A stretch of DNA of 44,265 nucleotides. It comes from a virus (Duplodnaviria; Heunggongvirae; Uroviricota; Caudoviricetes). Position numbers and translations under genes: made by a program. This document shows positions 5,988 through 24,319 of the stretch, one piece after another. The stretch covers positions 1-44,265 of IMG/VR virus record IMGVR_UViG_2877973648_000002. One strand, 5' to 3'. Numbering within the stretch: position 1 is the first letter of the stretch; each line of letters starts with the position of its first letter. Under the pieces are notes generated by a model. The model saw only the letters and a program-made list of their open reading frames with translations, was not told the origin of the DNA and did not search any database.

Positions 5988-6395
5988 TTATTTTATTGAT
6001 TTATTTTTACGCGCTTTAAGCATTTCTTCGAAGAGTTTGTTGAAGTTTTCTACTCTTGCGCGCATTTCAGACAGCAAGGCTTCCTGCTCGGAAGATGGAA
6101 GAGCATCGAATAATTCGATCAATTCTTTGTGGTTGGGAGTTAGCTCTGTTTCCACATGAAGTTCTTGTGCCGGCACTGGTGCCTTGTCTTCGTCACCAAA
6201 CATTAGCCATGTAGGTGAGCACTTCAGAGCATCCGCTAAAGCAAACAATCGTTTTCCGACTGGCTGGGTTTCGTCTCTTTCCCATTGTGAAATTGTGACG
6301 TGAGCAACCCCAGCGAGGCGCGCAGCTTCTCGTTGTGTTAAGCGTAATTCTTTTCGTCGCGCCAGAACTCGCTGGCCTAGGGTTCTTGTATCCAT
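5988..6395 (-). CDS. XRE-family HTH prophage repressor (CI/RacR-like)
   Basis: 135-aa ORF with N-terminal HTH (LTQREAARLAGVAHVTISQWERDETQP); divergent from a cro-like gene. Confidence 0.8.
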   Translation of the reverse strand: MDTRTLGQRVLARRKELRLTQREAARLAGVAHVTISQWERDETQPVGKRLFALADALKCSPTWLMFGDEDKAPVPAQELHVETELTPNHKELIELFDALPSSEQEALLSEMRARVENFNKLFEEMLKARKNKSIK

Positions 6396-6475
6396 AGTTA
6401 GGTAATTCTAATTTTTCTTGACTTAGGTATCCCGCGCACAATAATGTTAGAAAAGTCTAACAAGAGGAGGCTTTG
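6396..6475. promoter_or_regulatory. Divergent immunity promoter/operator region
   Basis: TTGACT (6418-6423), 17-bp spacer, ATAATG (6441-6446); palindrome TGTTAGAaaagTCTAACA at 6445-6462 overlaps the -10; AGAGGAGG RBS before the ATG at 6476. Confidence 0.55.
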
Positions 6476-6703
6476 ATGCTTAAAGCTGACGCAATTACTT
6501 TTTTTGGCAGCAAAACAAAGCTTGCCAATGCCGCAGGAGTGAGACTGGCAAGTGTTGCTGCTTGGGGGATACTGGTTCCTGAAGGTCGCGCGATGCGTCT
6601 ACAGGAGGCATCTGGCGGGGAGCTTCAGTATGATCCCAAAGTTTATGACGAATATCGTAAGACGAAGCGGGCGGGGCGGTTGAACAATGAAAATCACTCC
6701 TGA
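6476..6703 (+). CDS. Cro/YdaS-like small DNA-binding protein
   Basis: 75-aa ORF divergent from the repressor with strong RBS; N-terminus resembles Cro-like HTH proteins. Confidence 0.6.
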   Translation: MLKADAITFFGSKTKLANAAGVRLASVAAWGILVPEGRAMRLQEASGGELQYDPKVYDEYRKTKRAGRLNNENHS

Positions 6704-10422: not shown

Positions 10423-10499
10423 CTTACATCCATCTCCATTAAGAAATCTTGCTATTGTTCTTATGGATCGTCTTTCTGACTGATTTCATATTGGCGAGG

Positions 10500-10694
10500 T
10501 AACGGTAGTTAAGTAGAATGGCTGCGGGTGCTTGAGGCTATCTGCCTCGGGCATGAACACCAAGGGCAGATAGAGAAAAGCCCCAGTTAACATTACGCGT
10601 CCTGCAAGACGCTTAACATTAATCTGAGGCCAATTTCATGCTAGACACATGTAGGTTAGCCTCTTACGTGCCGAAAGGCAAGGAGAAGCAGGCT
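10500..10694. promoter_or_regulatory. hok/sok-type leader region (hok mRNA 5' UTR, mok overlap, antisense Sok target)
   Basis: Segments GCTTGAGGCTATCTGCCTC and TAGCCTCTTAC match recalled conserved elements of hok mRNA leaders; lies directly upstream of the hok start. Confidence 0.45.
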
Positions 10695-10781
10695 ATGAAG
10701 CAGCAAAAGGCGATGTTAATCGCCCTGATCGTCATCTGTTTAACCGTCATAGTGACGGCACTGGTAACGAGGAAAGACTGA
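10695..10781 (+). pseudogene. hokD: Hok-family type I toxin gene (HokD/RelF-like), truncated after codon 28 by IS3
   Basis: Translation MKQQKAMLIALIVICLTVIVTALVTRKD then TGA supplied by the first bases of IS3; matches recalled HokD/RelF N-terminus. Confidence 0.6.
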
Positions 10782-10808
10782 TCCTACCCACGTAATATGG
10801 ACACAGGC

Positions 10809-11675
10809 CTAAGCGAGGTTCTGGTTTTCAAATTGTTCCGGACTGAGGCCGCCACACCAACTGTGCCGCCGCCACCGATTGTAATCACATTCGATATAAT
10901 TAAATACCGTTGCCCGCATTATTTCCCGGCTGATAAAGTGTTCTCCATGGATACATTCCACTTTCAGCGAATGAAAGAAGCTTTCCACGCAGGCATTATC
11001 GTAGCAGCAACCTTTTGCGCTCATACTTCCACGCAGATTATGCCGCTTCAGTTGCGCCTGATAATCTGCTGAACAGTACTGGCCTCCACGGTCCGTGTGA
11101 ACGATAACGTTCCGGGGCCTCTTACGCCGCCACAGCGCCATCTGCAGGGCATCGCAGGCCAGTTGCGCCGTCATGCGTGGCGACATTGACCAGCCAATAA
11201 CGGCACGTGACCACAGGTCAATGACCACTGCCAGATACAGCCAGCCTTCATCTGTACGTAAGTACGTGATGTCTCCTGCCCACTTCTGGTTCGGGCCACT
11301 GGCGTAAAAATCCTGCTCCAACAGATTTTCTGACACAGGCAGGCCGTGTGCGCGGTAGCTGACCGGGCTGAACTTCCGGGAGGCCTTTGCCCTCAGTCCC
11401 TGACGGCGCAGGCTTGCCGCCACGGTTTTTACGTTAAAGGGGTAACCCTGAGCACGCAGTTCATCCGTCAGGCGTGGGGCACCGTAACGCTGTTTTGACC
11501 GGGTAAAAGCCGCGAGGACAACGCTGTCGCAGTGTTGGCGGAACTGCTGACGCGTGCTTATCCTTGTCCGCCGCTGACACCACGTATACCAGCCGCTGCG
11601 GGCCACCCGGAGCACGCGGCACATTGCTTTGATGCTGAACTCAGCCTGATGTTTTTCAATAAAGACATACTTCAT
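10809..11675 (-). CDS. insF: IS3 transposase OrfB (DDE integrase domain)
   Basis: 288-aa ORF matching recalled IS3 InsF ([32 protein letters not shown]...). Confidence 0.95.
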
Positions 11676-11971
11676 TTCAGGCGCTTCGCGAAGTATGTCG
11701 CGGCCTTTTGGAGGATAGCCAGCTCTTCATCCCGTTCTGCCAGCTGGCGTTTGAGACGTGCAATCTCGGTAGACATCTCCAGTTCACGTTCAGAAGACGT
11801 CTGCTGATTTTGCTGTTTACTGCGCCAGTTGTAGAGCTGTGATTCATACAGGCTGAGTTCACGGGCTGCGGCAGTAACACCGATGCGTTCAGCAAGCTTC
11901 AGGGCTTCACTGCGAAATTCAGGCGAATGCTGTTTACGGGGTTTTTTACTGGTTGATACTGTTTTTGTCAT
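11672..11971 (-). CDS. insE: IS3 transposase OrfA (HTH)
   Basis: [35 protein letters not shown]...; overlaps insF in ATGA fashion, consistent with the IS3 frameshift arrangement. Confidence 0.95.
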
Positions 11972-12036
11972 GTGAGTCACCTCTGACTGAGAGTTTACTC
12001 ACTTAGCCGCGTGTCCACTATTGCTGGGTAAGATCA

Positions 12037-12273
12037 CCTGCAATGACCCCGCTGATGCTGGACACATCCACCCGTAAGCTGGTTGCGTGGGATGGCACCA
12101 CCGACGGTGCTGCCGTTGGCATTCTTGCGGTTGCTGCTGACCAGACCAGCACCACACTGACGTTCTACAAGTCCGGCACGTTCCGTTATGAGGATGTGCT
12201 CTGGCCGGAGGCTGCCAGCGACGAGACGAAAAAACGGACCGCGTTTGCCGGAACGGCAATCAGCATCGTTTAA
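12037..12273 (+). pseudogene. D: Head decoration protein D, 3' fragment beginning at the IS3 junction
   Basis: Translation from the IS3 boundary [78 protein letters not shown] matches recalled C-terminus of lambda gpD. Confidence 0.85.
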
Positions 12274-12291
12274 CTTTACCCTTCATCACTA

Positions 12292-12317
12292 AAGGCCGCC
12301 TGTGCGGCTTTTTTTAC
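12292..12317 (+). terminator. Hairpin plus T-tract between D and E
   Basis: AGGCCGCctgtGCGGCT followed by TTTTTTT. Confidence 0.5.
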
Positions 12318-12328
12318 GGGATTTTTTT

Positions 12329-12604
12329 ATGTCGATGTACACAACCGCCCAGCTGCTGGCGGCAAATGAGCAGAAATTTAAGTTTGATCCGCTGTTTCTG
12401 CGTCTCTTTTTCCGTGAGAGCTATCCCTTCACTACGGAGAAAGTCTATCTCTCACAAATTCCGGGACTGGTAAACATGGCGCTGTACGTTTCGCCGATTG
12501 TTTCCGGTGAGGTTATCCGTTCCCGTGGCGGCTCCACCTCTGAATTTACGCCGGGATATGTCAAACCCAAGCACTTAGCATGGCTTTCTGAGGCTTTCGT
12601 GTAG
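12329..12604 (+). pseudogene. E: Major capsid protein E, 5' fragment interrupted by island insertion
   Basis: MSMYTTAQLLAANEQKFKFDPLFLRLFFRESYPF...GYVKPKH matches recalled lambda gpE N-terminus, then 9 unrelated codons (LAWLSEAFV) and stop. Confidence 0.85.
12564..12573. repeat. attL core (AACCCAAGCA) of the island, within E codons K-P-K-H
   Basis: Identical 10-mer at 23488-23497 at the other junction. Confidence 0.7.
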
Positions 12605-12736
12605 TTGCTGGTTTTTACACTTAATCTTTTGATAATAAAGAATAAGTTTATCTGGCGCTTTCACTGGATTTTCCTCGTTATCTGTGTGTTGCAATCATCT
12701 CTGTATTGCAGCTTGTATTGCTTTTTGGGGCTAAAA

Positions 12737-13972
12737 ATGGCTGGCGAGAACAAACTGAGCGACAAAGCACTTAAAGGATATCTGGGGAAACCCAGAGAAA
12801 AGCAGATCACCATTGCTGATGGAAAGGGGCTTTCTATTCGTGTGAGTACCAAGGGGGCTGTGAGCTTTGTTTTCTTCTACAGGTTAGCAGGTGGCCGGGC
12901 TGCTCCGGTCTGGCTAACGTTGGGTAAATATCCTGATATGTCACTCAAACAGGCAAGGGAAAAGCGCGACGAGTGCCGTGGTTGGTTGGCTGACAAACGT
13001 GATCCGCGTATCCAGATTAAGATTCAGGCTGAAGAACGCTTAAAGCCGGTCACAGTGGAGGATGCACTAAATTACTGGTATGAAAATTACTGTAAGGTGC
13101 GTCGTAAAACTCATGCTGTAACGCTTGGCAGATTTCGAAAGCATATCTTTCCCTATATCGGTCATTTGCCCGTAAATGACACTCACCTATATGAATGGCT
13201 GGACTGTTTTGACCGAATTAAACGTAATGCACCAGTTATGGCGGCGTATGTTTTTTCTGACACTAAATTAGCTCTTCGTTTTTGTCGGGTACGCCAGTAC
13301 GCGACGTGTGATGCTTTAAAGGATTTGCGCATGAGTGATGTGGGGCAGATTGCAGGTAAGCGGGATCGGGTTCTGGATGAAGCCGAACTGGGCCAGCTCT
13401 GGAAGGCAATTTTTGTCGAGCCTGATTTAAAACTAATGTCTGAATACACGCGAAAAATGTTTGTGCTTTGTACAGTATTTGGATGTCGAATGAGTGAAGC
13501 CCGATTATCTGAATGGAGCGAATGGGATCTCGAAAGTTGGGTTTGGACTGTACCAAAAGATCACTCAAAAACTGGTGTTGAAATCGTCAGACCAGTACCT
13601 GAAATTCTACGACAGTGGGTAACGGATGTTCACGAAGAGACAAAACATACTGGTTATGTGCTGGGAAGTCTGCGAATTAGAGAAAGCGTAAGCAAGATTG
13701 GGGGGAAAATCGGTAAACGTTTGGGCCATGAAAAACAATGGTCACTACACGACCTTAGAAGAACGCTATCTACTCATCTAAGTGATCTCGGTGTTGAATT
13801 TTATGTAGTAGAACAACTGTTAGGCCATGCGCTACCTGGCGTGGCAGGTGTTTACAACCGGAGTAAGTTTATGGCTAAAAAACTGGATGCTCTGGAACTC
13901 TGGACTACATATCTCAATAGCATCGCAGGTGCTGATTCAAAAGTGACAATCCTCAAACAAAAGGCTGGTTAA
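12737..13972 (+). CDS. int: P4-type tyrosine integrase of the island
   Basis: 411 aa from the ATG at 12737; catalytic-region motifs (HDLRRT, LGH, Y in GVYNRS); adjacent to attL; the upstream 44 codons of the ORF look non-coding. Confidence 0.85.
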   Translation: MAGENKLSDKALKGYLGKPREKQITIADGKGLSIRVSTKGAVSFVFFYRLAGGRAAPVWLTLGKYPDMSLKQAREKRDECRGWLADKRDPRIQIKIQAEERLKPVTVEDALNYWYENYCKVRRKTHAVTLGRFRKHIFPYIGHLPVNDTHLYEWLDCFDRIKRNAPVMAAYVFSDTKLALRFCRVRQYATCDALKDLRMSDVGQIAGKRDRVLDEAELGQLWKAIFVEPDLKLMSEYTRKMFVLCTVFGCRMSEARLSEWSEWDLESWVWTVPKDHSKTGVEIVRPVPEILRQWVTDVHEETKHTGYVLGSLRIRESVSKIGGKIGKRLGHEKQWSLHDLRRTLSTHLSDLGVEFYVVEQLLGHALPGVAGVYNRSKFMAKKLDALELWTTYLNSIAGADSKVTILKQKAG

Positions 13973-13973
13973 C

Positions 13974-14201
13974 ATGAAAAAAATGGCAATTGTTGATAAA
14001 AAGGGTCTGGAGTACATTCCTAACATCGATCGTATGATCCGTGAGAAAGAATGTCGGGAGCTAACCACTCTTGCAAACAGCACACGCTGGAAGCTGGAGA
14101 AGGAAGGAAAATTTCCTAAGCGGATCAAGATTGGTTCCACTGCTGTTGCATATCGTCTTTCAGAAGTGCAGGCATGGATTCGAGGTGAGTGGGTAGTTTA
14201 A
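13974..14201 (+). CDS. alpA: AlpA-family transcriptional regulator / excisionase-like protein
   Basis: 75-aa ORF starting 1 nt after the int stop; small HTH-like protein in the position AlpA/Vis occupies in P4-like and PICI elements. Confidence 0.65.
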   Translation: MKKMAIVDKKGLEYIPNIDRMIREKECRELTTLANSTRWKLEKEGKFPKRIKIGSTAVAYRLSEVQAWIRGEWVV

Positions 14202-14270
14202 ATTATCTCAGAATAAAATATTATGAATTACTGATTTGAGAATTTGTACTCAAATCAGTAATAACATTCT

Positions 14271-14807
14271 TTATAAGAGATTAAATCCAAATAAAGAGTA
14301 ATCATATACAGGGGTGCATTGCATCCCACTGAATATGCTGATGTTTTTTTCTGTTTCTATCCTTTTTTCAATAAGTTGTTGTATATTTTTACAGTACAAT
14401 TTGTGTGTGATGTTATTATCGTAAGCCTGATATAGCAACGTCAATGTTGACGCTAGGAAACATACAGATAAAATTAAAATAATATATGCAGTTTTTTTAT
14501 TTTTTGTCCATGATCTATTTGTTTGTGAAATATAAAGAATTCTGAGGTGGATAATGGTGAGAGACAATAGCAGGCCACTCAATAAAATAAGTATTGGGTT
14601 TGCGTATTTTATTAATGGTTGAGAGAAAAAAACTATTATAGCTCCTGTGACTGCGTATGAGAAAAAGGAGTGATTAAACTTCTTACTCCTTCTCTCAAGT
14701 ATTTTAATTTCATCTTGTGTGGGGGTTTTAGATGCCTCTAATATAAGTTTATTGAATGTTTCTGTTATCTTGTTTTTTGTGTTTGTGGCTATTTTTTTTA
14801 GATTCAT
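14271..14807 (-). CDS. Hypothetical integral membrane protein (A+T-rich cargo gene)
   Basis: 178-aa ORF with about three hydrophobic helices; strongly A+T-rich; convergent to int-alpA. Confidence 0.5.
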   Translation of the reverse strand: MNLKKIATNTKNKITETFNKLILEASKTPTQDEIKILERRSKKFNHSFFSYAVTGAIIVFFSQPLIKYANPILILLSGLLLSLTIIHLRILYISQTNRSWTKNKKTAYIILILSVCFLASTLTLLYQAYDNNITHKLYCKNIQQLIEKRIETEKNISIFSGMQCTPVYDYSLFGFNLL

Positions 14808-15157
14808 AGCATTCTAACTCCCTTAACTTATTTATTACTTTCTCTTTATGATAAGAGAGGGGAATGACTTGGTAAAGTGATTTGTCATTAATAATGATAA
14901 TCCTTGCGATAAATATTTCTGCAAGTTATTTATCTGTTTGTTGCTATCTTGTTAAGCGTTGGGTGTGGTTTATGTTTGGAGCGACTTTATTTAATCGTGA
15001 TTTTATGGATTTATATTTATATCCTGTAAGATAAGCGCATGTTAGTTCAGGAGTAGTGTCAGATAAAATTATTCGGAGTAGAACTACCTTTTCTGTTTAT
15101 TGCCAGTATTTACATAGCAATGCGCCGTAGTTACTCACATCACGGCGCTGATACTAA

Positions 15158-15460
15158 TTATTCAGATTCTTTGGCTTTACGCCGCTGGAGTTCTTCACGA
15201 GCGACGGCTACGAGTTGCCCGATTTCCTCCGCTGCCTTGATGCCGATTTGTTCGACCTTAGCTAAGGCATCCAGTGAAGACACGAGGGGATTTTCTCCGC
15301 TTCCTTCTGCCTGGCGGCGGGCGATCTCACCGCGCATGGCGGTTACTATGAATCCGGCGTTGCTTTCGCCGTCCAGTTTTACGGATTCCATGCCCTCCAT
15401 AACATCGTGGGGAACCCTGATCGTTGTCATTTGCGATTTTGCATTTTTGTATACAGACAT
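15158..15460 (-). CDS. Ribbon-helix-helix-type transcriptional regulator (probable island repressor)
   Basis: 100-aa ORF; segment MTTIRVPHDVMEGMESVKL consistent with an RHH beta-strand/helix; divergent from an operator-rich promoter region. Confidence 0.5.
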   Translation of the reverse strand: MSVYKNAKSQMTTIRVPHDVMEGMESVKLDGESNAGFIVTAMRGEIARRQAEGSGENPLVSSLDALAKVEQIGIKAAEEIGQLVAVAREELQRRKAKESE

Positions 15461-15480
15461 AGTTAATCACCAATTTGTTA

Positions 15481-15582
15481 TGTGTATATCACTATACACA
15501 AAAGTGAGATATAAAAACACTTGCAATGTATATCACCACAATATAATGTATATCTCACATTATGGTCGCTATGTATCTCACA
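15481..15582. promoter_or_regulatory. Operator array and promoter of the island
   Basis: Palindrome TGTGTATATCACTATACACA (15481-15500); repeated ATGTATATC/ATGTATCTC boxes; TTGCAA (15521-15526) and TATAAT (15542-15547). Confidence 0.5.
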
Positions 15583-15668
15583 ATGATCGATTCATAAAAA
15601 CGACGAAACCCGGCAGTGCGCGAACACTAACCGGGCTTCTAACCAAACCGTTAAACGAGGTAACGACT

Positions 15669-16034
15669 ATGGCTGGAACACAGCATACCCAAACTCACCC
15701 TAAATTTATATACATCTTTCTGGCGCTACATCGCGATCGCATAGCAGATGGAGCAACTACGGTACATGTAGCCGCTGACACGCTGGTTGATGCCCGCAAG
15801 ATGGTTAAGGAGATGGGCTATACTGCGGCTTTCTGGAAAGGGCGGGAAGAAAACACGCTGTTTATTCAGAAATGTGAAAACAATTTCATCTGGCGTTTTA
15901 TCGCCCTGAGTACGGCACAACCGCGCGTGATTACCATCGAGGCCACCAGCGAACAGGAAGCCCGCCAGCAATCCCCAACTGGCTGCGTGATGATATTCGC
16001 CGCCCGTATTCGTCAGGAGGTGTGCCATGAATGA
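15669..16034 (+). CDS. Hypothetical protein (first gene of island rightward operon)
   Basis: 121 aa from the ATG at 15669 with GAGG RBS; the annotated 304-aa ORF is over-extended across the operator region. Confidence 0.5.
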   Translation: MAGTQHTQTHPKFIYIFLALHRDRIADGATTVHVAADTLVDARKMVKEMGYTAAFWKGREENTLFIQKCENNFIWRFIALSTAQPRVITIEATSEQEARQQSPTGCVMIFAARIRQEVCHE

Positions 16035-16251
16035 TCTTTATTTTAAAGTGCTGACACATGCTGAAAACGCGCTCGTTTGTGGCAAAAATATGCGAGAAAT
16101 CTTATCAACCTGGCTTGATGGGACAACAAATGCGGAACACGATGAACGGGATGCTAATTTAGCTGGAGCGTTAATTACGTTACTTGATCCTGTCATCAAA
16201 GAGCTGGATGAAGCTATAAAAATACACGACCAGAGCTATACCGGAGAATAA
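16027..16251 (+). CDS. Hypothetical protein
   Basis: 74-aa ORF overlapping the previous stop; acidic. Confidence 0.45.
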   Translation: MNDLYFKVLTHAENALVCGKNMREILSTWLDGTTNAEHDERDANLAGALITLLDPVIKELDEAIKIHDQSYTGE

Positions 16252-16253
16252 AA

Positions 16254-16541
16254 ATGAAAAATAAATTTTCTGGCTTTATTGCCAGCGGTCAAACTCATTC
16301 AAAAATCAGCCTTGGGGATATTTTCAAAGATAGCTATGGCTATCGAGTAAAGATTATTTCGGTTGATGATCGCCGTGTCTCTTATTTGCGTGATGGTTAT
16401 GATTTTGAATGTGTTATGCCGCGTCAGCAGTTCGAAAGAGATTTCATTCTGGTAAAAAATTGCAAGACAGATAATCAGAGGCGTGCCGCAGGCTATATCC
16501 GCAAAATTCGGGCAATGTTAGTTGCCGGAGGTAACAAATGA
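16254..16541 (+). CDS. Hypothetical protein
   Basis: 95-aa ORF tightly packed between neighbours. Confidence 0.45.
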   Translation: MKNKFSGFIASGQTHSKISLGDIFKDSYGYRVKIISVDDRRVSYLRDGYDFECVMPRQQFERDFILVKNCKTDNQRRAAGYIRKIRAMLVAGGNK

Positions 16542-18358
16542 AACGTGCTCCGAACTTAAAATACCAACCGCGCGACAAAATGACAGAAGTCATCATTTTT
16601 GCTGGCAGTGATGCCTGGAGCCATGCAAAAGAATGGAATGAATGGGCGGGTAAGCATATTGCAGCAGATGATACACCACCAGTAATTCTGGGTACGGAAC
16701 AACTGGAAAACCTGGATGATATGCAAATTATCGATGAAGGCCGTCATTATGTGCGTGTTTATCGTGCCGGAAAGATCGCAGAGAAAAATCTGACGAAGGT
16801 TGCGACATTACTTGCTATTGCAGGCGTAAAGGAAGCACGTTGTTACCGTAGCTTTGTTGATCGAGAGCCTGAAGACTGGACTCCGCGCCTTGTCGGCCTA
16901 AAAGCTGAAGCGGAGCATGGGGAAAGTCTGGTGATTGAACTGCCAGTGAAGAAGGCAGAGCGCAAAAATGACGAGCGTGCTTCATCTTTGGCGTTGAATC
17001 AGATGGGGGCCAGCCAGCGCGGTGAAGTTCTCCTGGCACATTACGGCGGCGAACTGGCAATCAATGCCGACTCTGACACCGTTCATCATTACAACGGCGT
17101 TGTATGGGAGCCGGTTCAGGATAAAGAGTTACAGCGTGCTATGGCGCAGATTTTCATTGATGCGGAGATCAGCTATTCGCAGAACGCCATTAAATCGGCG
17201 GTAGATACCATGAAGTTAAGTTTGCCTGTAATGGGGAATACAGCCCGTAACCTGATTGGATTCAGTAACGGGGTATTTGATACCAGAACAGGTAATTTTC
17301 GGGAGCATAACAAAAACGACTGGTTGTTAATTGCCAGTGAATTACCTTTCAGCCCACCAGCAGAGGGGGAAACGCTGGCAACACATGCGCCGAATTTCTG
17401 GAAGTGGTTGCGCCGTTCGGTGGCTGAGAATGACCGCAAGGCAGATCGCGTACTGGCGGCATTATTCATGGTGCTGGCGAACCGGTACGACTGGCAGTTA
17501 TTCATTGAGGTAACAGGGCCGGGGGGAAGTGGTAAAAGCGTGATGGCGGAGATTTGCACCATGCTGGCGGGTAAGGCTAATACAGTATCAGCAAGCATGA
17601 AGGCGCTGGAAGATGCAAGGGAACGTGCGTTAGTGGTTGGCTTTTCGCTGATTATCATGCCGGATATGACCCGCTACGCTGGTGATGGGGCAGGGATTAA
17701 GGCCATTACAGGCGGTGACAAGGTGGCAATTGACCCGAAACACAAAGCCCCCTATTCAACGCGTATTCCGGCAGTAGTGCTGGCGGTTAACAATAACGCC
17801 ATGTCATTCAGTGACCGCAGCGGGGGGATCTCACGTCGTCGGGTGATATTCAATTTTTCGGAAGTTGTACCGGAGAACGAACGCGATTCGATGCTGGCGG
17901 AAAAAATAGAAGGTGAGCTGGCGGTAGTGATTCGTCATCTGCTTACACGGTTTGCTGATCAGGACGAAGCCAGACGCCTGTTATATGAGCAGCAGAAATC
18001 TGAAGAAGCACTGGCGATAAAGCGAGAGGGGGATTCGCTGGTGGACTTCTGCGGCTATCTCATGGCATCGGTAATGTGTGATGGCCTGTTAGTGGGTAAT
18101 GCTGAAATTGTGCCATTCAGCCCACGCAGGTATCTCTATCATGCCTATCTGGCTTATATGAGGGCACATGGGTTTGGTAAACCTGTAACACTGACGCGCT
18201 TCGGTAAAGATATGCCGGGGGCAATGGCGGAATATGGCAGGGAGTATATGAAACGGAAAACGAAGCACGGTTTGCGTTCAAACGTGACACTGACGGAGGA
18301 ATCAGAAGACTGGATGCCATCATGTGTATCGGTCACTAATGACGATAGCAAAAATTAA
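16538..18358 (+). CDS. Primase/helicase-type replication protein (D5/P4-alpha-like SF3 NTPase)
   Basis: 606-aa ORF; Walker A VTGPGGSGKS; Walker B-like LIIMPDMT; overall resemblance to phage/plasmid primase C-terminal helicase domains; followed by iterons. Confidence 0.75.
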   Translation: MKRAPNLKYQPRDKMTEVIIFAGSDAWSHAKEWNEWAGKHIAADDTPPVILGTEQLENLDDMQIIDEGRHYVRVYRAGKIAEKNLTKVATLLAIAGVKEARCYRSFVDREPEDWTPRLVGLKAEAEHGESLVIELPVKKAERKNDERASSLALNQMGASQRGEVLLAHYGGELAINADSDTVHHYNGVVWEPVQDKELQRAMAQIFIDAEISYSQNAIKSAVDTMKLSLPVMGNTARNLIGFSNGVFDTRTGNFREHNKNDWLLIASELPFSPPAEGETLATHAPNFWKWLRRSVAENDRKADRVLAALFMVLANRYDWQLFIEVTGPGGSGKSVMAEICTMLAGKANTVSASMKALEDARERALVVGFSLIIMPDMTRYAGDGAGIKAITGGDKVAIDPKHKAPYSTRIPAVVLAVNNNAMSFSDRSGGISRRRVIFNFSEVVPENERDSMLAEKIEGELAVVIRHLLTRFADQDEARRLLYEQQKSEEALAIKREGDSLVDFCGYLMASVMCDGLLVGNAEIVPFSPRRYLYHAYLAYMRAHGFGKPVTLTRFGKDMPGAMAEYGREYMKRKTKHGLRSNVTLTEESEDWMPSCVSVTNDDSKN

Positions 18359-18364
18359 ACTTAT

Positions 18365-18601
18365 GGAATAACTGTTCACCACTGTTCACCCTGTCATAAA
18401 TATCTTTTATATCAGTATATTATAGGGTGAACAGTTATTTATGAACTGTTCACCAAACTATTCACTGTTCACCTTTTTGATTGTTTATTGAGCTTCAAGG
18501 GTGAACAGTGGTGAACAGTTGGTGAATAGTTTTTGTGAAACTGTTCACCCATTAACATTATGAATTAAAAGAGAAAATATCAAAAGGTGAACAGGTGAAG
18601 G
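18365..18601. repeat. Iteron cluster / putative replication origin of the island
   Basis: About 10 copies of CTGTTCACC / GGTGAACAG in both orientations, including tandem pairs, flanking an A+T-rich spacer. Confidence 0.7.
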
Positions 18602-18645
18602 GTTAAAACGCAAAAATTTTAATTTACTGCTGTGAGATAAAGCCT

Positions 18646-18891
18646 ATGACAGCGAAGCACACAAAAAAATCACAATCGCACGCCCTTGATTTGACGGAAC
18701 ACTGGTTAAGGGTGTCGATAAAAATCATCGACCGCAACGCCGGGGAAGGATACGCGAAAGCACATCCCGAACTGATTAGCGCATTCATGACAACGGCGGC
18801 TGCAAACTTTGCCACTCTGACCGAACGGGAGATTGCTGAAGCGGAGGAAGTGACAACAATCAATATTAAGTCCGGAGAGCAGGCAGCATGA
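18646..18891 (+). CDS. Hypothetical protein
   Basis: 81-aa ORF overlapping the start of the SSB-like gene. Confidence 0.4.
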   Translation: MTAKHTKKSQSHALDLTEHWLRVSIKIIDRNAGEGYAKAHPELISAFMTTAAANFATLTEREIAEAEEVTTINIKSGEQAA

Positions 18892-19337
18892 CGGCGCAAA
18901 TATCAGTTTACGGGCGGTTGGTGGACGACCCGCAGACAAAACAGACCAGCAAGGGCACCCCCATGACGCTGGCGCGTATGGCGGTATCACTGCCCTGCAG
19001 TCAGTCGGATGACGGTCAGGCGACGATGTGGTTATCTGTCCTGGCGTTTGGCAGACAAGCCGACGCGCTGGCAAAGCATCACAAAGGCGAACTCCTGAGC
19101 GTGGCGGGTAACATGCAGATGAGCCAGTGGACTGGACAGAACGGCGAAACGCGGCAGGGCTGGCAGGTTATCGCAGACAGCGTAATCAGTGCGCGATCGG
19201 TGCGACCGGGCGGCAATAAAGGCCAACAGGGGCAGGCTACTGACGCACTGAACAGAGCAAAACAACAGGCAGATCAGCAAGGAAGCCAGCCACCAGTGGG
19301 AGATAATGAGCAATGGGGAGATGATATCCCGTTTTAA
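18888..19337 (+). CDS. ssb: Single-stranded DNA-binding protein (SSB-like)
   Basis: 149-aa ORF with OB-fold-like N-terminus, Gly/Gln-rich linker and C-terminal acidic tail ending DDIPF as in bacterial SSB. Confidence 0.7.
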   Translation: MTAQISVYGRLVDDPQTKQTSKGTPMTLARMAVSLPCSQSDDGQATMWLSVLAFGRQADALAKHHKGELLSVAGNMQMSQWTGQNGETRQGWQVIADSVISARSVRPGGNKGQQGQATDALNRAKQQADQQGSQPPVGDNEQWGDDIPF

Positions 19338-19355
19338 ATATTGCCAATAAAAAAA

Positions 19356-19380
19356 GGCCGGAAAAAATAAATTTTCCGGC
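19356..19380. terminator. Hairpin after ssb
   Basis: GGCCGGAAAA...TTTTCCGGC stem; A-tract upstream, so U-tract on the minus strand; no T-tract downstream on the plus strand. Confidence 0.35.
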
Positions 19381-19554
19381 ATGCTACATAAATCCCGACC
19401 AAAGGGAGTGAAGATATTAACACTAATTTTCCGCACTGAAGTTGTCACCCCAAAACTTTATACAACATTGCACTCGGTTGCATGTATTCGCATGACAAAT
19501 ATCGGTGATAGCATATATCCACAATTATTTTTAATGAATGCAAAGAGGATGCGT

Positions 19555-20595
19555 ATGGTTGATTTATATTCGCCTACTCAGCTTGTACAGGTGGTTAATG
19601 CTGTAGATGTACAAAAACAACTAAATGCGTTGTTTACCAGTTTGTTTTTTACTCGCTCGGTAATGTTTGAATCGCGCGATATTATTCTTGATACAATCGA
19701 CGATCCAAATATCCCAATTGCAGCGTTTTGTTCTCCTATGGTGGGTAGTAAAGTTTCACGTGACGAAGGGTACGAATCAAAAACAATTCGTCCAGGCTAT
19801 ATGAAGCCGAAAAGCAGCATTGATCCAAATAAGTTAGCTGTGCGCCCTGCTGGTGTATCACCTGAGCAATACAATGCTTTTGGGGCGCGTAATATTAAAG
19901 TTAAACAGGCGATTGTAAATCAAGCTAAAGCTATTCGTGCACGTATTGAATGGCTTGCTGTTCAGGCAATCACAACGGGGAAAAATATCATTGAGGGCGA
20001 TGGTATTGAACGTTATGAGCTGGACTGGAATATTAAACCACAAAATATCATCACTCAGTCTGGCGGTGCTGAGTGGTCAGGTAAGGATAAAGAAACTTTT
20101 GATCCAAATGATGATATTGAGAGCTACGCAGAATTTAGTGAGGGCGTCACTAATATTATCATTATGGGCGGTAATGTATGGAAGAAATACCGTTCATTCA
20201 GAGCGATAAAAGAGGCTCTGGATACCCGTCGTGGTTCTAATTCCGAACTGGAAACGGCCCTTAAAGACCTTGGTGATTCGGTGAGTTTTAAAGGGTATAT
20301 GGGCGATGTTGCGATTGTTGTTTACAGCGGGCGTTATACCGACGAGGACGGAACAGAAAAACATTTCCTTGATCCTGATTTGATGGTGCTTGGCAATACG
20401 GCTCTTCAGGGGATTGTCGCCTATGGCGGTATTCAGGATCCGGAGCTAATCCGAATGGGGCTGACTAAAGCCGAACTTGCACCGAAAAACTATATTGTGC
20501 CTGGTGATCCGGCTATTGAATATGTGCAGACACATTCAGCACCACAGCCAATACCGGCCCGCATCAATCGTTTTGTTACCGTTCGCATTGGCTAA
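19555..20595 (+). CDS. Major capsid protein, diverged lambda gpE homologue
   Basis: 347 aa from the ATG at 19555 (AGAGG RBS); alignable by eye along its length to lambda gpE (e.g. GYMKPKSSIDP vs GYVKPKHEVNP; RRGSNSELETALKDLG...GDVAIVVYSG nearly identical). Confidence 0.8.
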   Translation: MVDLYSPTQLVQVVNAVDVQKQLNALFTSLFFTRSVMFESRDIILDTIDDPNIPIAAFCSPMVGSKVSRDEGYESKTIRPGYMKPKSSIDPNKLAVRPAGVSPEQYNAFGARNIKVKQAIVNQAKAIRARIEWLAVQAITTGKNIIEGDGIERYELDWNIKPQNIITQSGGAEWSGKDKETFDPNDDIESYAEFSEGVTNIIIMGGNVWKKYRSFRAIKEALDTRRGSNSELETALKDLGDSVSFKGYMGDVAIVVYSGRYTDEDGTEKHFLDPDLMVLGNTALQGIVAYGGIQDPELIRMGLTKAELAPKNYIVPGDPAIEYVQTHSAPQPIPARINRFVTVRIG

Positions 20596-20604
20596 GGGGG
20601 AGCA

Positions 20605-20946
20605 ATGGCTACTCATTACACTGAACTCATGGCTGGCACTGAAGCACTGGTGACTACGCTGGGGATATTTTCAGCTAATAAAGGGGTAATTCCTGCATTT
20701 ACGCCACTGATGCAGGAAGATGCAACAGGTGCACTGGTAGTATGGGATGGTTCGAGCGTAGGTAAAGCGGTTTATGTTTCCGCTGTACAAATCGACACCG
20801 CGAAAAAAACACAGGCTCAGGTCTATAAGACAGGTGTCTTAAATGTTGATGCTCTGAACTGGCCTGAGTCTGTTAAAGAACTGTCAGTAAAGGTTGCAGC
20901 GTTTGTTGGCTCAGGTATTTCTGTTCAGCCGCTGGCTCGTGTGTAA
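20605..20946 (+). CDS. Head decoration protein, lambda gpD homologue
   Basis: 113-aa ORF; VVWDGSSVGKAVYVSA and C-terminal region parallel gpD ([18 protein letters not shown]). Confidence 0.7.
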   Translation: MATHYTELMAGTEALVTTLGIFSANKGVIPAFTPLMQEDATGALVVWDGSSVGKAVYVSAVQIDTAKKTQAQVYKTGVLNVDALNWPESVKELSVKVAAFVGSGISVQPLARV

Positions 20947-20957
20947 AGGGGGATACA

Positions 20958-21341
20958 ATGCAGAATGATTACAATGACCTTAAGCCAATTGCCGAAATGA
21001 TGTACCCGAATCAAGCTGTAGAGGAATTAAAAGCTATCGCTGACAAAATGTGTTTAAGCGAGCGCCTTGTTGATATGAATCAGGTGATGGAAATTACAAC
21101 CCTGAGTCGTCGTACACTGCTAAACCTTGAGGCTAGTGGAGAGTTCCCGGAGCGTGTGCAGGTTACGGAAGGGCGTAAGGCCTGGTATTTAAGTGAAGTG
21201 ATCGACTGGATAAATAATATTCCTCGCGCTTCTGAATATTGCCGCGTACCTGTCCCAAAAAAGCCAGATGCGGCGCTATGCCTCAAGATTGAGCGTGTAC
21301 GCCGCAATGCACGGGATGGTCGCTATAAGCTGATTGGTTGA
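20958..21341 (+). CDS. AlpA-like HTH protein (second copy)
   Basis: 127-aa ORF; central segment MNQVMEITTLSRRTLLNLEASGEFPERVQVTEGRKAWYLSEVIDWI resembles the AlpA/phage-regulator HTH. Confidence 0.5.
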   Translation: MQNDYNDLKPIAEMMYPNQAVEELKAIADKMCLSERLVDMNQVMEITTLSRRTLLNLEASGEFPERVQVTEGRKAWYLSEVIDWINNIPRASEYCRVPVPKKPDAALCLKIERVRRNARDGRYKLIG

Positions 21342-21583
21342 TGAAATTAGGGCCCGCTCTGGCTGGCGGGTCCTTTCCGGCGATCCAGAACGTTACGGGG
21401 CGTCAGGCGCGCAGATTCTTGCTATTTATGACAATTTTCTGCGATTTGCCGTTTCTGTTCTTCTTCGTTGTAACTATATGTTATTAATGGAAATGCCACC
21501 TAAAAAGAAAGGAAATGGTAAGCGCTATTTTGAGCTAAAAACAGCTTAACCGTTTCCTTTCTCCAAAATTTACTGAGGCGGCT

Positions 21584-22009
21584 ATGAATCCATGCGCAGA
21601 AGTCATGACAACTATCAAACTAAGCGGATCTTTAGCTTCTTTGTTCGCCAGAGAACATCAGCGCCTTATCGGTCCGACGCGTGAGGCATTAAGGGTATTA
21701 TCAGCCACTATTCCGGGATTTGAGAAATTCATGAACACTAGCAAGGCTTGAGGACTCACTTTCGCCGTGTTTGTGGATAAAAATAATGTCGCGCAGGATG
21801 ATCTCGATTTTCCAAATGGTGGTCGTACGATTCGAATTGTTCCGATCATTATGGGGAGTAAGCGTGCTGGTGTTCTGCAAACCATTCTTGGCGCTTTCTT
21901 GGTGGTTGGTGGTGTTCTGGGGGCAACGATAGGGCAAGCATGGAGCGGTGGTGTGTGGAGCGGCAAGTATTTTCTATTGGCAGAAGCCCATTCCGCCAAG
22001 ATAGGCTAG
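21584..22009 (+). pseudogene. Tail assembly protein I-like gene, interrupted by stop/frameshift
   Basis: 21584-21751 encodes MNPCAEVMTTIKLSGSLASLFAREHQRLIGPTREALRVLSATIPGF... (parallels the lambda gpI N-terminus) then stop; homology resumes in another frame at 21767-22009 (TIRIVPIIMGSKRAGVLQTILGAFLVVGG). Confidence 0.45.
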
Positions 22010-22104
22010 ACGTATAAGATCGGTTACAATCTATAAATCAGCTGTTGAATTATTGAATTTTAACCATATTTATCAGATGGACTTCATTCAAAAAGGTAAC
22101 TTTG

Positions 22105-22791
22105 ATGGCCGGACAATTAGACGAAGCAGCAAAACAGATTTTGGGTACCTTACTGGCAGATTTTACAGATCGAGGGTTAACTGCACAGGATTTAAAAAAT
22201 GGTTATGAAGGCCCGAACATCAATGCGCTAGCTACTGCAGTATGCAACGTCGCTGATTTTACATCTGTAGATTTTGAAGTTGCCTTTGGCGATCTCGAAA
22301 AAAGCAAACTAATCAAAACTGGCCCCATGAAAATGTTCGATAATGATCACAATAGCTCTGTGATCATTATTGCTTCTTATAGCCTACGTGAATATGTTTA
22401 TTTGACGGAGGCTGGATACAAGGAGTCCAGGAAAGTACCAAATCGCCCACAACGTGTTCAGCGTATAGTCAATAATCTAACGATCACCGGCGGACATTTC
22501 AGCAATACGCAATTAGGGCAGGGAGAGGTCGTTTCCCAAACCCAAAACATCACAAGCAGTTCCGATTCTGAAATAGTTGCTAAGCTGATTTCTATCATTG
22601 AAGAACAGGGGCAAGTAGTTAACAGCGATCAACGTTCTGATATTGAAGCAGCTGTGGCAGCCGCTAATGAAGGTGATGGTAAAGAAGCGAAATCATTGCT
22701 GTCTAAAGTATGCGGTCCTGTTTGGGAGTCTGTGCAACCAGTAATATGGCCGATCATTGGTGAGTTGGTTAAGAAAGGGCTCGGGATTTAA
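22105..22791 (+). CDS. Hypothetical protein (island cargo)
   Basis: 228 aa from the ATG at 22105 with AAGG RBS; no recognisable motif; A+T-rich. Confidence 0.5.
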   Translation: MAGQLDEAAKQILGTLLADFTDRGLTAQDLKNGYEGPNINALATAVCNVADFTSVDFEVAFGDLEKSKLIKTGPMKMFDNDHNSSVIIIASYSLREYVYLTEAGYKESRKVPNRPQRVQRIVNNLTITGGHFSNTQLGQGEVVSQTQNITSSSDSEIVAKLISIIEEQGQVVNSDQRSDIEAAVAAANEGDGKEAKSLLSKVCGPVWESVQPVIWPIIGELVKKGLGI

Positions 22792-22983
22792 TTTAATAAA
22801 TTCTAAAAGGGCTGTTTGGGTAGTATTTTTATGGGGCTCTTCAATTAAAAGGAGTCATAGGGTCAAACGATGTGCCTATGACTCCTGGATAAAGCCATCA
22901 GAGAATATTAGTGTTAACAATTTCTCTTCAGCCCTTGTTTATACGATGCCAGCTTCAGAACCGAATCAACGCTCATGCGATCT

Positions 22984-23271
22984 TTAGCATCTCGGTAATG
23001 ACAGTAAGTTATTATTCCATCGACCATCAGCATAAGTACGTATAAATTTCCGCCCTCCCCCTCCTGGATCAACGACACCTACATCAGCACGTTTGCCATA
23101 ACTATCAGTGACATAGAAAGTATGTAACTTGTTCTCAATTGAATTAACTACATCTGCCACAGTCCACTTACTTCCAGGGGGATTAAATTGAGGGCTTCCC
23201 ACATGAGTAATGTGTTCATGAAGGGCGTTCGAACTGGAGAGAGTAATACAAGTTAATCGTACATCAACCAT
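22984..23271 (-). CDS. Hypothetical small protein (island cargo)
   Basis: 95 aa from the ATG at 23271 with AAGGAG RBS; glycine-rich loop DPGGGGRK; convergent with the 228-aa gene. Confidence 0.45.
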   Translation of the reverse strand: MVDVRLTCITLSSSNALHEHITHVGSPQFNPPGSKWTVADVVNSIENKLHTFYVTDSYGKRADVGVVDPGGGGRKFIRTYADGRWNNNLLSLPRC

Positions 23272-23487
23272 CTTCAACTCCTTATTTACTGTGAAAAATC
23301 ATAAGATACAGCATGTATCGAAATACAGCAGGGTGAACAATTTCGATTTACGAGGACTTAGCAAAGTCTCTTTCTCTTAAACTGAGGGCTTGTATTGCAG
23401 GTTGTATTGCAACTGTAGCTAAGCAATATCAGTTGTAAGCTTTATTTCTTTTACAGTCAATCGTATAGCATCGTATTTGACTCATGT

Positions 23488-23497
23488 AACCCAAGCA
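23488..23497. repeat. attR core (AACCCAAGCA) of the island
   Basis: Identical to 12564-12573; E coding sequence continues immediately after. Confidence 0.7.
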
Positions 23498-24278
23498 TGA
23501 GGTGAATCCGCAGATGACCCTGCGTCGCCTGCCGGATGAAGATCCGCAGAATCTGGCGGACCCGGCTTACCGCCGCCGTCGCATCATCATGCAGAACATG
23601 CGTGACGAAGAGCTGGCCATTGCTCAGGTCGAAGAGATGCAGGCAGTTTCTGCCGTGCTCAAGGGCAAATACACCATGACCGGTGAAGCCTTCGATCCGG
23701 TTGAGGTGGATATGGGCCGCAGTGCGGCGAACAACATCACACAGTCCGGCGTCACGGAGTGGAGCAAGCGTGACAAGTCCACGTATGACCCGACCGACGA
23801 TATCGAAGCCTACGCGCTGAACGCCAGCGGTGTGGTGAATATCATCGTGTTTGACCCGAAAGGCTGGGCGCTGTTCCGTTCCTTCAAAGCCGTCAGGGAG
23901 AAGCTGGATACCCGTCGCGGCTCTCATTCCGAGCTGGAGACAGCGGTGAAAGACCTGGGCAAAGCGGTGTCCTATAAGGGAATGTATGGCGATGTGGCCA
24001 TCGTCGTGTATTCCGGACAGTACGTGGAAAACGGCGTCAAAAAGAACTTCCTGCCGGACAACACGATGGTGCTGGGGAACACTCAGGCTCGCGGTCTGCG
24101 CACCTATGGCTGCATTCAGGATGCGGATGCATTGAGTGAGGGTATTAATGCGTCTCCCCGTTATCCGAAAAACTGGAAGACATCCGGCGATCCGGCGCGA
24201 GAGTTCACCATGATTCAGTCAGCACCGCTGATGCTGCTGGCTGATCCTGATGAGTTCGTGTCCGTTCAACTGGCGTAA
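23490..24278 (+). pseudogene. E: Major capsid protein E, 3' fragment
   Basis: From the attR repeat the frame reads PKHEVNPQMTLRRLPDEDPQNLADPAYRRRRIIMQNMRDEELAIAQVEEMQ... to ...ADPDEFVSVQLA, matching recalled lambda gpE residues ~80-341; a stop lies immediately upstream in frame. Confidence 0.85.
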
Positions 24279-24319
24279 TCATGGCCCTTAGGGGCCATTT
24301 TCTCTCTGTGGAGGAGTCC

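Follow-up and report, generated by a model that had tools for sequence, protein, structure and literature searches.

The window (the whole 44,265-nucleotide stretch of DNA that was analysed) holds a lambdoid prophage whose major capsid gene is split by a smaller island, and within that island, at 19555–22009, lie a capsid gene and a decoration gene of its own. Why should an element that interrupts its helper's capsid gene carry a diverged version of the same gene? The answer depends on what the island is, on how old its capsid genes are, and on what their products may do.

Identity of the island and its place in helper gene E

The island spans 12574–23497 (10,924 bp) and is inserted in a defective lambdoid prophage at the Qin locus, where it breaks gene E in codon 82. 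Rac was considered as the host prophage and rejected, as the flanking genes are rspB and ydfJ and both dicB and pinQ lie inside. The helper fragments and attachment-site elements are as follows:

12031–12273, + strand: 3′ fragment of helper decoration gene D, its 5′ side cut by IS3; 96% identical to lambda gpD residues 31–110
12329–12573, + strand: 5′ fragment of helper E, codons 1–81 and two bases of codon 82; Pfam Phage_cap_E profile positions 1–78
12564–12573: attL copy of the 10-bp identity block AACCCAAGCA, the crossover region, read directly from the sequence
12702–12721, + strand: doubled arm motif TGTATTGCagctTGTATTGC, downstream arm of attP, repeat family D4; starts 133.5 bp from the core centre
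23391–23410, + strand: doubled arm motif TGTATTGCaggtTGTATTGC, upstream arm of attP; ends 82.5 bp from the core centre
23488–23497: attR copy of AACCCAAGCA, read directly from the sequence
23498–24278, + strand: 3′ fragment of helper E; Pfam Phage_cap_E profile positions 94–328

Joining the two E fragments gives a 341-residue protein that is 97% identical to lambda E, which bears out the claim of the first-pass annotation that the island disrupts the capsid gene of the prophage. The configuration is not new: the prototype, Eco567.11capE, is a phage-inducible chromosomal island (PICI) of the helper-embedded kind (HE-PICI) in E. coli NRG857c, where it occupies site E:Phage_cap_E:80 (Tommasini, Mageeney & Williams, NAR Genom Bioinform 2023, PMC10111431). 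An 11capE-type satellite with its own capsid genes has therefore already been published, and the present find is a rediscovery.

The likeness to the prototype is close. NRG857c is 98.3% identical to the query at the nucleotide level over 83% of the query, and the two elements share the insertion point in a lambda-type E, the 10-bp core, the doubled arm motifs, the gene order and near-identical integrase and D-like proteins. The RefSeq accessions of the capsid protein, primase and AlpA are the same in NRG857c as in a genome 100% identical to this part of the window. The insertion lies at about codon 80, is bounded by the 10-bp attL/attR block that PMC10111431 gives for 11capE, and brings in no replacement sequence; equivalent E junctions were found in loci L009 and L010, and the split-E arrangement recurs in Cedecea and Kosakonia islands. 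A doubled TGTATTGC motif has been published at 81 ± 2 bp upstream and 132 ± 2 bp downstream of the attP centre (PMC10111431). Doubled arm motifs were found in the helper-embedded loci and were missing from the non-embedded PICIs (L006–L008). Judged by its position beside alpA at the upstream end of a locus 98.3% identical to the prototype, the integrase is of the HE-PICI kind. Two differences separate the elements: the accessory slot of Eco567.11capE holds DUF262 and HEPN genes whereas here it holds a gpI-like remnant, a phrog_28570 protein and a DUF3892 protein, and the helper there is integrated at icd and largely complete whereas here it is a truncated prophage at Qin (rspB/ydfJ).

The island also has the traits listed for Gram-negative PICIs (Fillol-Salom 2018), namely an integrase, AlpA, a pri/rep gene with a 3′ origin, a length of about 10–15 kb, rightward core genes and no lysis or tail genes. 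The one trait that it lacks is a chromosomal att site never used by prophages; its att site lies inside a prophage gene, which is the defining feature of the helper-embedded subclass. Taken together, these comparisons make it very probable that the island, 10.9 kb long, is an HE-PICI of the 11capE / E:Phage_cap_E:80 family already in the literature, with 19555–22009 as its late zone.

When the prototype is induced, the prophage–satellite composite excises and replicates, and the satellite then leaves exactly at the 10-bp core, restoring helper E; its authors were unable to recover virions from NRG857c (PMC10111431). The prophage around the present island lacks Q, lysis, terminase, portal and protease/scaffold genes as well as the 5′ part of D (the identical genome has 12031–12273 labelled as a partial head decoration protein), and this copy should therefore be mobilisable only by another lambdoid helper.

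The island's capsid and decoration genes

Genes of the island lie on the + strand (the DUF3892 gene is on the − strand), co-oriented with the prophage tail genes and with the disrupted E. They run in the order integrase, AlpA, small regulatory region, primase and iteron origin, SSB, E-like gene and D-like gene, followed by a second AlpA-like regulator, cos, the gpI-like remnant and accessory cargo:

12737–13972, + strand: satellite tyrosine integrase; Pfam Arm-DNA-bind_3 and Phage_integrase, PGAP coordinates
13974–14201, + strand: AlpA regulator/excisionase; Pfam Phage_AlpA 2.8e-15, WP_000737991.1, also in NRG857c
16538–18358, + strand: primase/replicase; Pfam D5_N, DUF5906 and Pox_D5, WP_000817023.1, also in 11capE of NRG857c
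18361–18549: iteron cluster of GGTGAACAGT-type repeats; repeat families D1, D2, D5 and D16
18888–19337, + strand: single-strand DNA-binding protein; Pfam SSB 1.7e-16
19555–20595, + strand: satellite-lineage major capsid protein, lambda E family; Pfam, PHROG and PDB matches, WP_000228111.1, the accession of the 11capE prototype capsid protein
20605–20946, + strand: satellite-lineage head decoration protein, lambda D / phage 21 SHP family; Pfam HDPD, phrog_49, PDB 1TD0
20958–21341, + strand: second AlpA-family HTH regulator; Pfam Phage_AlpA 7.5e-09, phrog_2790 3.2e-49
21368–21563, + strand: predicted satellite cos site; blastn and alignments with lambda 1–200 and a helper cos
21584–22009, + strand: decayed gpI-like tail-assembly gene; in-frame TGA at 21749–21751, homology lost after about 21905
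22102–23277: variable accessory slot; phrog_28570, Pfam DUF3892
22102–22791, + strand: 229-residue protein of phrog_28570, function unassigned
22984–23277, − strand: DUF3892 protein

Of the four zones that follow one another in HE-PICIs (integration, Bro, replication, late), the integration, replication and late zones are clearly visible; the segment at 14.2–16.3 kb has Icd-like and YlcI/YnfO genes and small ORFs, among which Pfam scans gave no match to a Bro-N domain. The integrase is 83–89% identical to those of the embedded islands of Cedecea and Kosakonia. Lying directly 3′ of the primase gene, the iteron cluster is probably the satellite replication origin, a position that fits the origin rule for PICIs (PMC6092414). 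The second AlpA-like gene is kept after D in L007–L010, and its product is unlike the protein at the equivalent position in OI-51-type PICIs.

The E-like ORF is intact, encodes 346 residues and is preceded by a good Shine-Dalgarno sequence (AGAGGA). It matches Pfam Phage_cap_E (PF03864) over profile positions 4–327 of 329 (E = 2.4e-41) and phrog_29, 'major head protein' (3.4e-89), and among solved structures it matches 3BQW (E = 2.6e-121) and the cryo-EM structure of lambda gpE, 7VI9 (2.3e-76). The protein is colinear with lambda gpE over its full length at 42% identity, with no large insertion or deletion, and the blocks RRGSNSELETA(L/V)KDLG and GDVAIVVYSG are kept between the two. On the strength of these full-length profile and structure matches, we assign it to the lambda E family of major capsid proteins, with the HK97 fold. 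The D-like protein (113 residues) matches Pfam HDPD (PF02924, 4.5e-15), phrog_49 'head decoration' (1.3e-25), PDB 1TD0 (4.7e-16) and lambda gpD, 7VII_H (1e-11), and is 38% identical to lambda gpD. NCBIfam gave no match for the E-like, D-like or I-like protein. A full-length but diverged E homologue with two conserved blocks, a gpD-like gene after it, and a capsid fold to be checked by profile and structure searches were what the first-pass annotation had put forward, and on all of these it stands. Like gpE and gpD, the two island proteins belong to the same Pfam families and are encoded by adjacent genes; in the island, however, E precedes D whereas in lambda D precedes E, and the island pair has no accompanying portal, protease or scaffold genes.

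Could the pair simply have arisen by recent duplication or capture of the E, D and I genes of the resident prophage, or do the island genes amount to functionless, decaying relics? The late zones of PICIs do take up helper late genes, relatives of the island have captured a cos–Nu1 segment 95% identical to lambda, and the island's gpI-like gene has decayed. Island E, however, is only 41% identical to helper E, which rules out recent capture from this prophage, as had been proposed from the divergence; among 50,697 phage genomes no record was more than 42% identical to it. For island D and the surviving fragment of helper D the figure is about 40%, and for the I-like sequence and helper gpI it is 30%. 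The E proteins of the helpers around embedded copies range from about 59–66% to 100% identity to lambda E, whereas each island E is at 42–43%. Nor do E and D look like relics: both are intact, island E is 80–87% identical across four genera, and dN/dS between genera is 0.02–0.07 for E and 0.05–0.12 for D, with dS saturated. These values (0.02–0.12) indicate strong purifying selection on the pair. For E and D the duplication or relic explanation is thus refuted; it applies solely to the I-like remnant, which is a relic rather than a recent copy.

The same E/D pair occurs in an OI-51-type island between roxA and phoQ (L006) and in a Kluyvera island beside mug and rpoD (L007); island E and D are 55.6% and 51.8% identical, respectively, to the pair of the OI-51/EcCICFT073-type PICI. 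From these sequence comparisons we conclude that the pair is an old satellite lineage, common to non-embedded PICIs, rather than a recent copy.

The cos site, the gpI-like remnant and related satellites

Downstream of the second AlpA-like gene, the predicted cos site combines sequence that resembles lambda to the left of cosN, a 12-nt cohesive-end segment of variant sequence, GGGCGTCAGGCG (21398–21409), and R3-like and R1-like cosB elements; a cos at the equivalent position has been described in 11capE (PMC10111431). A search for the exact lambda cohesive end returned nothing meaningful, and the site was located by alignment only. Since GGGCGTCAGGCG differs from the lambda cohesive end at 5 of 12 positions, cleavage of the satellite cos by a lambda-type terminase is assumed. 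Helper late transcription would read through the co-oriented island, and island DNA would be packaged from its own cos by such a terminase into phage-sized heads, most simply as a tetramer (4 × 10.9 = 43.7 kb, or 90% of the lambda length).

The gpI-like gene had been described as interrupted by a stop and a frame change. The gene is indeed broken, but no frame change was found: 21584–21751 and 21767–22009 lie in one frame, and the only interruption is a TGA in that frame, at a position where arginine is encoded in intact relatives. This TGA is not a sequencing error, because 21540–22100 is found with 100% identity in 16 complete E. coli genomes. Read through, the sequence is 76% identical over 116 residues to an intact gpI-like protein, 199 residues long, from a cf-PICI; to the gpI of the prophage itself it is 30% identical. 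The segment 21767–22009 matches phrog_32 at positions 66–122 (1.9e-12), so that within the gpI family (PF06805 / phrog_32) the gene is incomplete, with the TGA inside it and the profile covered only to about position 122 of 203; the intact relative in L007 (12062–12661) covers positions 2–201 of 203. Homology to intact relatives stops near 21905, and the conserved C-terminal half is therefore missing. By these alignments the gpI-like gene, intact in relatives, survives here only as a dead remnant.

Two other identities for this gene were considered. Relatives are annotated 'terminase small subunit' at this position, but the possibility that 21584–22009 is an rpp/terS remnant was rejected, the sequence being gpI-like; in relatives that slot may instead be filled by a Nu1-like gene. 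A tie to the PICI tail-assembly-interference function 'Tai' was dropped, as the Tai paper gives no hint of gpI homology. In relatives the accessory slot carries TIR, DUF262 and HEPN, Abi, DUF2971 or Nu1-like genes.

A related late zone is found in EcCICFT073 / O-island 51, a Gram-negative cos PICI in which c1499 is the capsid homologue (PDB 3BQW) and c1500 the decoration homologue, and which has Rpp (Fillol-Salom et al. 2018, 2019). That E. coli PICIs encode such homologues has been known since 2018, and 3BQW is a crystal structure of one of them. The two late modules are alike, with a capsid homologue, a decoration homologue, a small regulator, cos and a packaging or late gene; the SSB proteins are 69% identical and cos is equally placed. 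EcCICFT073/OI-51, in contrast, is chromosomal, between roxA and phoQ, whereas the present island lies inside a prophage gene; it has a RepA helicase as its replicase, which differs from that of the present island; it has Rpp where the present island has the gpI-like remnant; and its cohesive end, GGGCGGCGACCT, is identical to that of lambda where the present island has GGGCGTCAGGCG. The integrases showed no similarity, but the query used was one base out of frame, which makes this comparison unreliable.

Possible roles of the E/D pair

The first-pass annotation placed a satellite with its own capsid and decoration genes outside known PICI mechanisms. This did not survive comparison, since SaPIbov5 Ccm and the cf-PICIs already use satellite capsid proteins. 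Ccm is cited in PMC6092414 as a capsid homologue that makes small capsids, and both it and the cf-PICI capsid protein are, like island E, HK97-fold proteins encoded by the satellite itself. A cf-PICI at fis also holds the intact relative of the island's gpI-like gene. The cf-PICIs, however, encode a full module of capsid, protease, portal, connectors, HNH, TerS and TerL (as in L005), whereas among the ORFs of the present island only the capsid and decoration genes of such a head and packaging module were found; the island has no portal, protease or scaffold gene of its own. The island ORFs scanned (a few small ones were left out) gave no Pfam or PHROG match to Sid or Psu.

We favour, tentatively and at somewhat less than even odds, the reading that E and D serve as functional shell and cement proteins, which would use portal, protease and scaffold supplied by the helper, assemble alone or mixed with helper E, and provide the satellite with a capsid protein independent of the interrupted helper gene. 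Weighing against this are the lack of those partner genes in the island and published results for EcCICFT073, in which deletion of c1499 or c1500 altered neither lambda interference nor island transfer by the resident helper, and which uses phage-sized capsids (PMC6092414, PMC6739421).

A stronger version, in which the capsid is swapped outright, appears unlikely. For as long as helper E is interrupted, late transcription of the helper would supply no E or D but those of the satellite; the two would build shells, perhaps of altered size or stability, on the portal, protease and scaffold of the helper, and the variant cos of the satellite would fill these shells preferentially. If this were true, insertion into E and possession of a private E/D pair would be two halves of one hijacking mechanism. 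The negative deletion results for EcCICFT073 come from a non-embedded relative and one set of helpers.

A back-up copy that specifically replaces the disrupted helper E was suggested by the authors of PMC10111431, and an island inside E that has an intact, co-oriented E, and hence lies within the helper late operon, has the arrangement that such a copy needs. We consider it improbable. The pair is also present in the non-embedded PICIs at roxA/phoQ and mug/rpoD and is therefore not specifically tied to disruption of helper E; exact excision restores helper E anyway, and at 41% identity to it, working with helper partners is not assured.

Redirection of capsid size, which the first-pass annotation suggested as an alternative to capsid substitution, has Ccm as its precedent; satellite E (with D) would force small capsids with room for one or two copies of the island but not for the helper genome. 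The strong conservation of E and D, found in satellites only, and the island length of 10.9 kb, about a quarter of lambda, are also in keeping with it. EcCICFT073, however, has the orthologous pair and is packaged in phage-sized capsids (PMC6092414, PMC6739421), so that Ccm-type small capsids are unseen for this relative, and its interference remains when c1499 or c1500 is deleted. Four island copies at 90% of the lambda length would be accommodated by full-sized heads, and island E carries no large indel relative to lambda E. These observations leave size redirection with little probability.

A non-structural or antagonistic role, with E and D acting as a dominant-negative poison of helper heads, or as decoys or alternatives that escape capsid-sensing host defences, is quite unlikely. 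Satellites often interfere with their helpers, selection maintains the pair even though transfer in the laboratory does without it, and the adjoining slot in the island family carries defence-type cargo (TIR, HEPN, Abi). Deletion of c1499 or c1500 did not, however, bring back lambda plaques on EcCICFT073 strains, and a decoration protein fits poorly in a decoy or poison model.

We found no later functional work on HE-PICIs, or on PICI capsid and decoration genes, beyond the 2018, 2019 and 2023 papers. The E/D pair is confined to satellites, old and strongly selected, yet the only deletion tests, those in EcCICFT073, were without phenotype. What these two proteins do bears on the question of whether a lambdoid satellite makes, or alters, its own shell.

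The surrounding prophage and the insert in its capsid gene

A complete, though defective, lambdoid prophage of the Qin locus fills the window, as read from the annotation of a genome with 100% identity to positions 12000–24300.

Features of the helper prophage (all rows except D and E are from the annotation of the identical genome)
20–1315, minus strand: prophage integrase, adjoining rspB
After the integrase: excisionase, exonuclease, dicB, ydfD and repressor/cro genes
12031–12273: 3′ fragment of helper D
12329–12573: first 81 codons of helper E (Pfam Phage_cap_E profile 1–78)
23498–24278: remainder of helper E (profile 94–328), 10.9 kb beyond the 5′ piece
Running to ydfJ: tail genes Z to J, lom, tail fibre genes and pinQ
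42982–44265: truncated ydfJ

When joined, the two pieces of helper E form an open 341-codon gene that is 97% identical to lambda E, and the 10,924 bp insert between them (12574–23497) is a satellite. In the window annotation the prophage has no Q, lysis genes, Nu1, A, W, B, C/Nu3 or 5′ part of D, and head-making and DNA packaging are beyond its capacity. The region that would hold Q and the lysis, terminase, portal and protease genes is occupied at 8935–12010 by a gene for an Sll1717-family P-loop ATPase (of low GC, 0.35), a hokD fragment and an IS3 element directly adjoining the truncated D gene; the deletion by which the helper became defective was probably mediated by IS3.

Features of the island, in gene order
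12564–12573 and 23488–23497: 10-base identity block AACCCAAGCA, the same at both junctions
Within 12574–23497: tyrosine integrase and AlpA
A few small regulatory ORFs (Icd-like, YlcI/YnfO, DUF4222)
D5-type primase, then an iteron cluster
SSB
19555–20595: E-like gene
20605–20946: D-like gene
After the D-like gene: second AlpA-family regulator
21368–21563: cos site, by alignment with the lambda cos region
21584–22009: gpI-like remnant
Last: two accessory genes

The iterons, of the GGTGAACAGT type, lie immediately 3′ of the primase gene at 18361–18549 and include a 29-nt palindromic unit, GGTGAACAGTTATTTATGAACTGTTCACC; an extra copy is found near attR (23330–23341). Between alpA and the regulatory ORFs, and oriented against the core genes of the island, a very AT-rich stretch (14271–14807, minus strand; GC 0.33) encodes a predicted 178-aa membrane protein that has no family assignment and is kept in the prototype island described below. 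The stretch from cos to attR (22102–23277) is a variable cargo slot, holding here a 229-aa phrog_28570 protein and, on the opposite strand, a DUF3892 protein; in relatives (including L012, at 11234–12950) it holds TIR, DUF262+HEPN, 'abortive infection family', DUF2971 or Nu1-like genes.

Identity with published helper-embedded islands

Published work already covers both the element and its defining oddity. Tommasini, Mageeney and Williams (2023), looking for islands with a homologue of their own insertion-target gene, named the configuration helper-embedded PICI (HE-PICI), and reported 201 instances at a site that they termed E:Phage_cap_E:80; truncation of the kind seen in this helper occurs, by their account, in many helpers (PMC10111431). 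In their description a doubled TGTATTGC motif flanks the attP centre, lying 81 ± 2 bp upstream and 132 ± 2 bp downstream of it (PMC10111431). In the window this doubled motif is at 23391–23410 and 12702–12721, 82.5 and 133.5 bp from the core; it is present in embedded relatives and missing from non-embedded ones.

The island of NRG857c, prototype strain of their 11capE family, matches with 98.3% identity over 83% of the query, and its capsid (WP_000228111.1), primase and AlpA have the same RefSeq accessions as those in the genome identical to this stretch. The two differ in the accessory slot, which carries DUF262+HEPN in NRG857c, and in the helper, which is an icd-integrated prophage in that strain. 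The E/D pair is found at no less than 95% nucleotide identity in about 360–395 of 5,426 complete E. coli genomes, and the split-E arrangement with the same island type occurs also in Cedecea and Kosakonia.

The island E/D pair, gpI remnant and cos region

The first-pass annotation read 19555–20595 as a full-length, diverged relative of gpE followed by a gpD-like gene, and both assignments held. The E-like product matches Pfam at 2.4e-41 (positions 4–327 of 329) and phrog_29 at 3.4e-89, shares 42% identity with lambda E along its entire length and contains the conserved blocks that had been quoted; on sequence grounds it belongs, as a full-length member, to the lambda E family. Its sequence also matches, at E=2.6e-121, a crystal structure titled 'putative capsid protein of prophage' (3BQW) and, at 2.3e-76, the cryo-EM chains of lambda gpE (7VI9 and others). 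A product lacking the capsid fold, which the first-pass annotation had named as a refuting outcome, is thereby ruled out. The D-like product (Pfam HDPD, 4.5e-15; phrog_49, 1.3e-25; 38% identity to lambda D) matches the structures of phage 21 SHP (1TD0) and lambda gpD, and is a member of the gpD/SHP family.

Island E and the helper E that it interrupts share 41% identity, and among the 437 matching records from 50,697 phage genomes none exceeded 42% identity to island E. Recent capture from the resident prophage is excluded, in agreement with the first-pass annotation, whose inference of an old divergence is correct. Judged by sequence similarity, its nearest kin, and those of island D, are genes of other satellites. 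Capsid and decoration genes are arranged alike in the OI-51/EcCICFT073-type PICI, located between roxA and phoQ; their products are 55.6% and 51.8% identical to the pair described here, and 3BQW is the capsid homologue of this PICI. That the pair serves as a dedicated back-up for the disrupted gene of the helper is possible but less supported, and its presence in non-embedded PICIs weakens this reading.

Across Kluyvera, Superficieibacter, Cedecea and Kosakonia, island E and D are 80–87% and 69–77% identical to those of the window, with dN/dS of 0.02–0.07 for E and 0.05–0.12 for D (synonymous sites are saturated), indicating that both are functional and conserved. Around embedded copies, the identity of helper E to lambda E ranges from about 59–66% (Cedecea) to 100% (E. 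coli), whereas that of island E stays at 42–43% in all cases; island E does not track the E of its helper.

The first-pass annotation also described an I-like gene broken by a stop and a frame change. Its gpI identity and the stop were confirmed: a Kluyvera PICI has an intact relative of 199 aa whose match to phrog_32 'tail assembly protein' runs from end to end (1.1e-76), the read-through translation has 76% identity over 116 aa to the intact relative that ends a cf-PICI at fis, and one in-frame TGA (21749–21751) replaces an Arg of the relatives. The frame change was wrong: 21584–22009 contains no frameshift. Homology ends near 21905, with loss of the conserved C-terminal half; the stretch is identical in 16 complete genomes and therefore does not need resequencing. 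The intact homologues (L007, the Kluyvera PICI by mug and rpoD, 12062–12661; L005, the cf-PICI at fis of E. coli FDAARGOS_1283, 5926–6525), each of 199 aa, come last among the late genes of their satellites, which differ in kind and both lack tail genes; the L005 protein is ~29% identical to the gpI of the window's prophage. We found no published function for any satellite gpI homologue.

Within the cos region, GGGCGTCAGGCG (21398–21409) aligns with the 12-nt cohesive end of lambda and differs at 5 of 12 positions from GGGCGGCGACCT, which is common to lambda, the E. coli helper, the OI-51-type PICI and the Kluyvera PICI. The flanks and the R3- and R1-like elements around this variant are conserved; it recurs in the E. 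coli 95-3322 island (L002), and a third version, GGGCGGCAGACT, is found in the Kosakonia island. A Nu1-family small terminase gene is present in some islands of the 11capE type; in L002 (21552–22103) it takes the slot of the gpI remnant. The cos-Nu1 segment that carries this gene has 95% identity to lambda bases 13–528. The first 100 residues of the product are 98% identical to lambda Nu1, and its C-terminal part has only 41% identity to Nu1 and likewise to the PICI protein Rpp. A recent capture of helper cos-Nu1, in which the terminase-binding tail was replaced, appears to account for this. According to the prototype paper 11capE has no terS (PMC10111431).

Proposed life cycle and role of the E/D pair

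After mitomycin C treatment of the prototype the prophage-satellite composite excises and replicates, and precise excision of the satellite follows (PMC10111431). An intact helper E would result from excision at the core, and the island has replication genes and iterons of its own. The co-oriented island may be transcribed by read-through of helper late transcription and packaged by a lambda-type terminase. An island tetramer measures 43.7 kb, 90% of lambda length, consistent with the phage-sized capsids used by EcCICFT073 (PMC6092414, PMC6739421). Since the surrounding prophage is devoid of head and packaging functions, the island is stranded unless another lambdoid phage provides these.

Deletion of either c1499 or c1500, the capsid and decoration homologues of EcCICFT073, leaves interference and transfer unaffected (PMC6092414, PMC6739421). 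This negative evidence from the nearest studied relative argues against the capsid substitution or size redirection hypothesised in the first-pass annotation; size redirection of the kind associated with Ccm, the SaPIbov5 capsid homologue, is possible with less support, as is an antagonistic or decoy function. Together with the lack of portal, protease and scaffold genes in the island, it also counts against a structural role for the pair. However, binding of lambda gpD is restricted to the assembled, expanded E lattice, and E and D are jointly conserved in three satellite lineages. For these reasons we consider it possible, if somewhat short of probable, that the two are real shell and cement proteins, which would be assembled on the portal, protease and scaffold of a helper.
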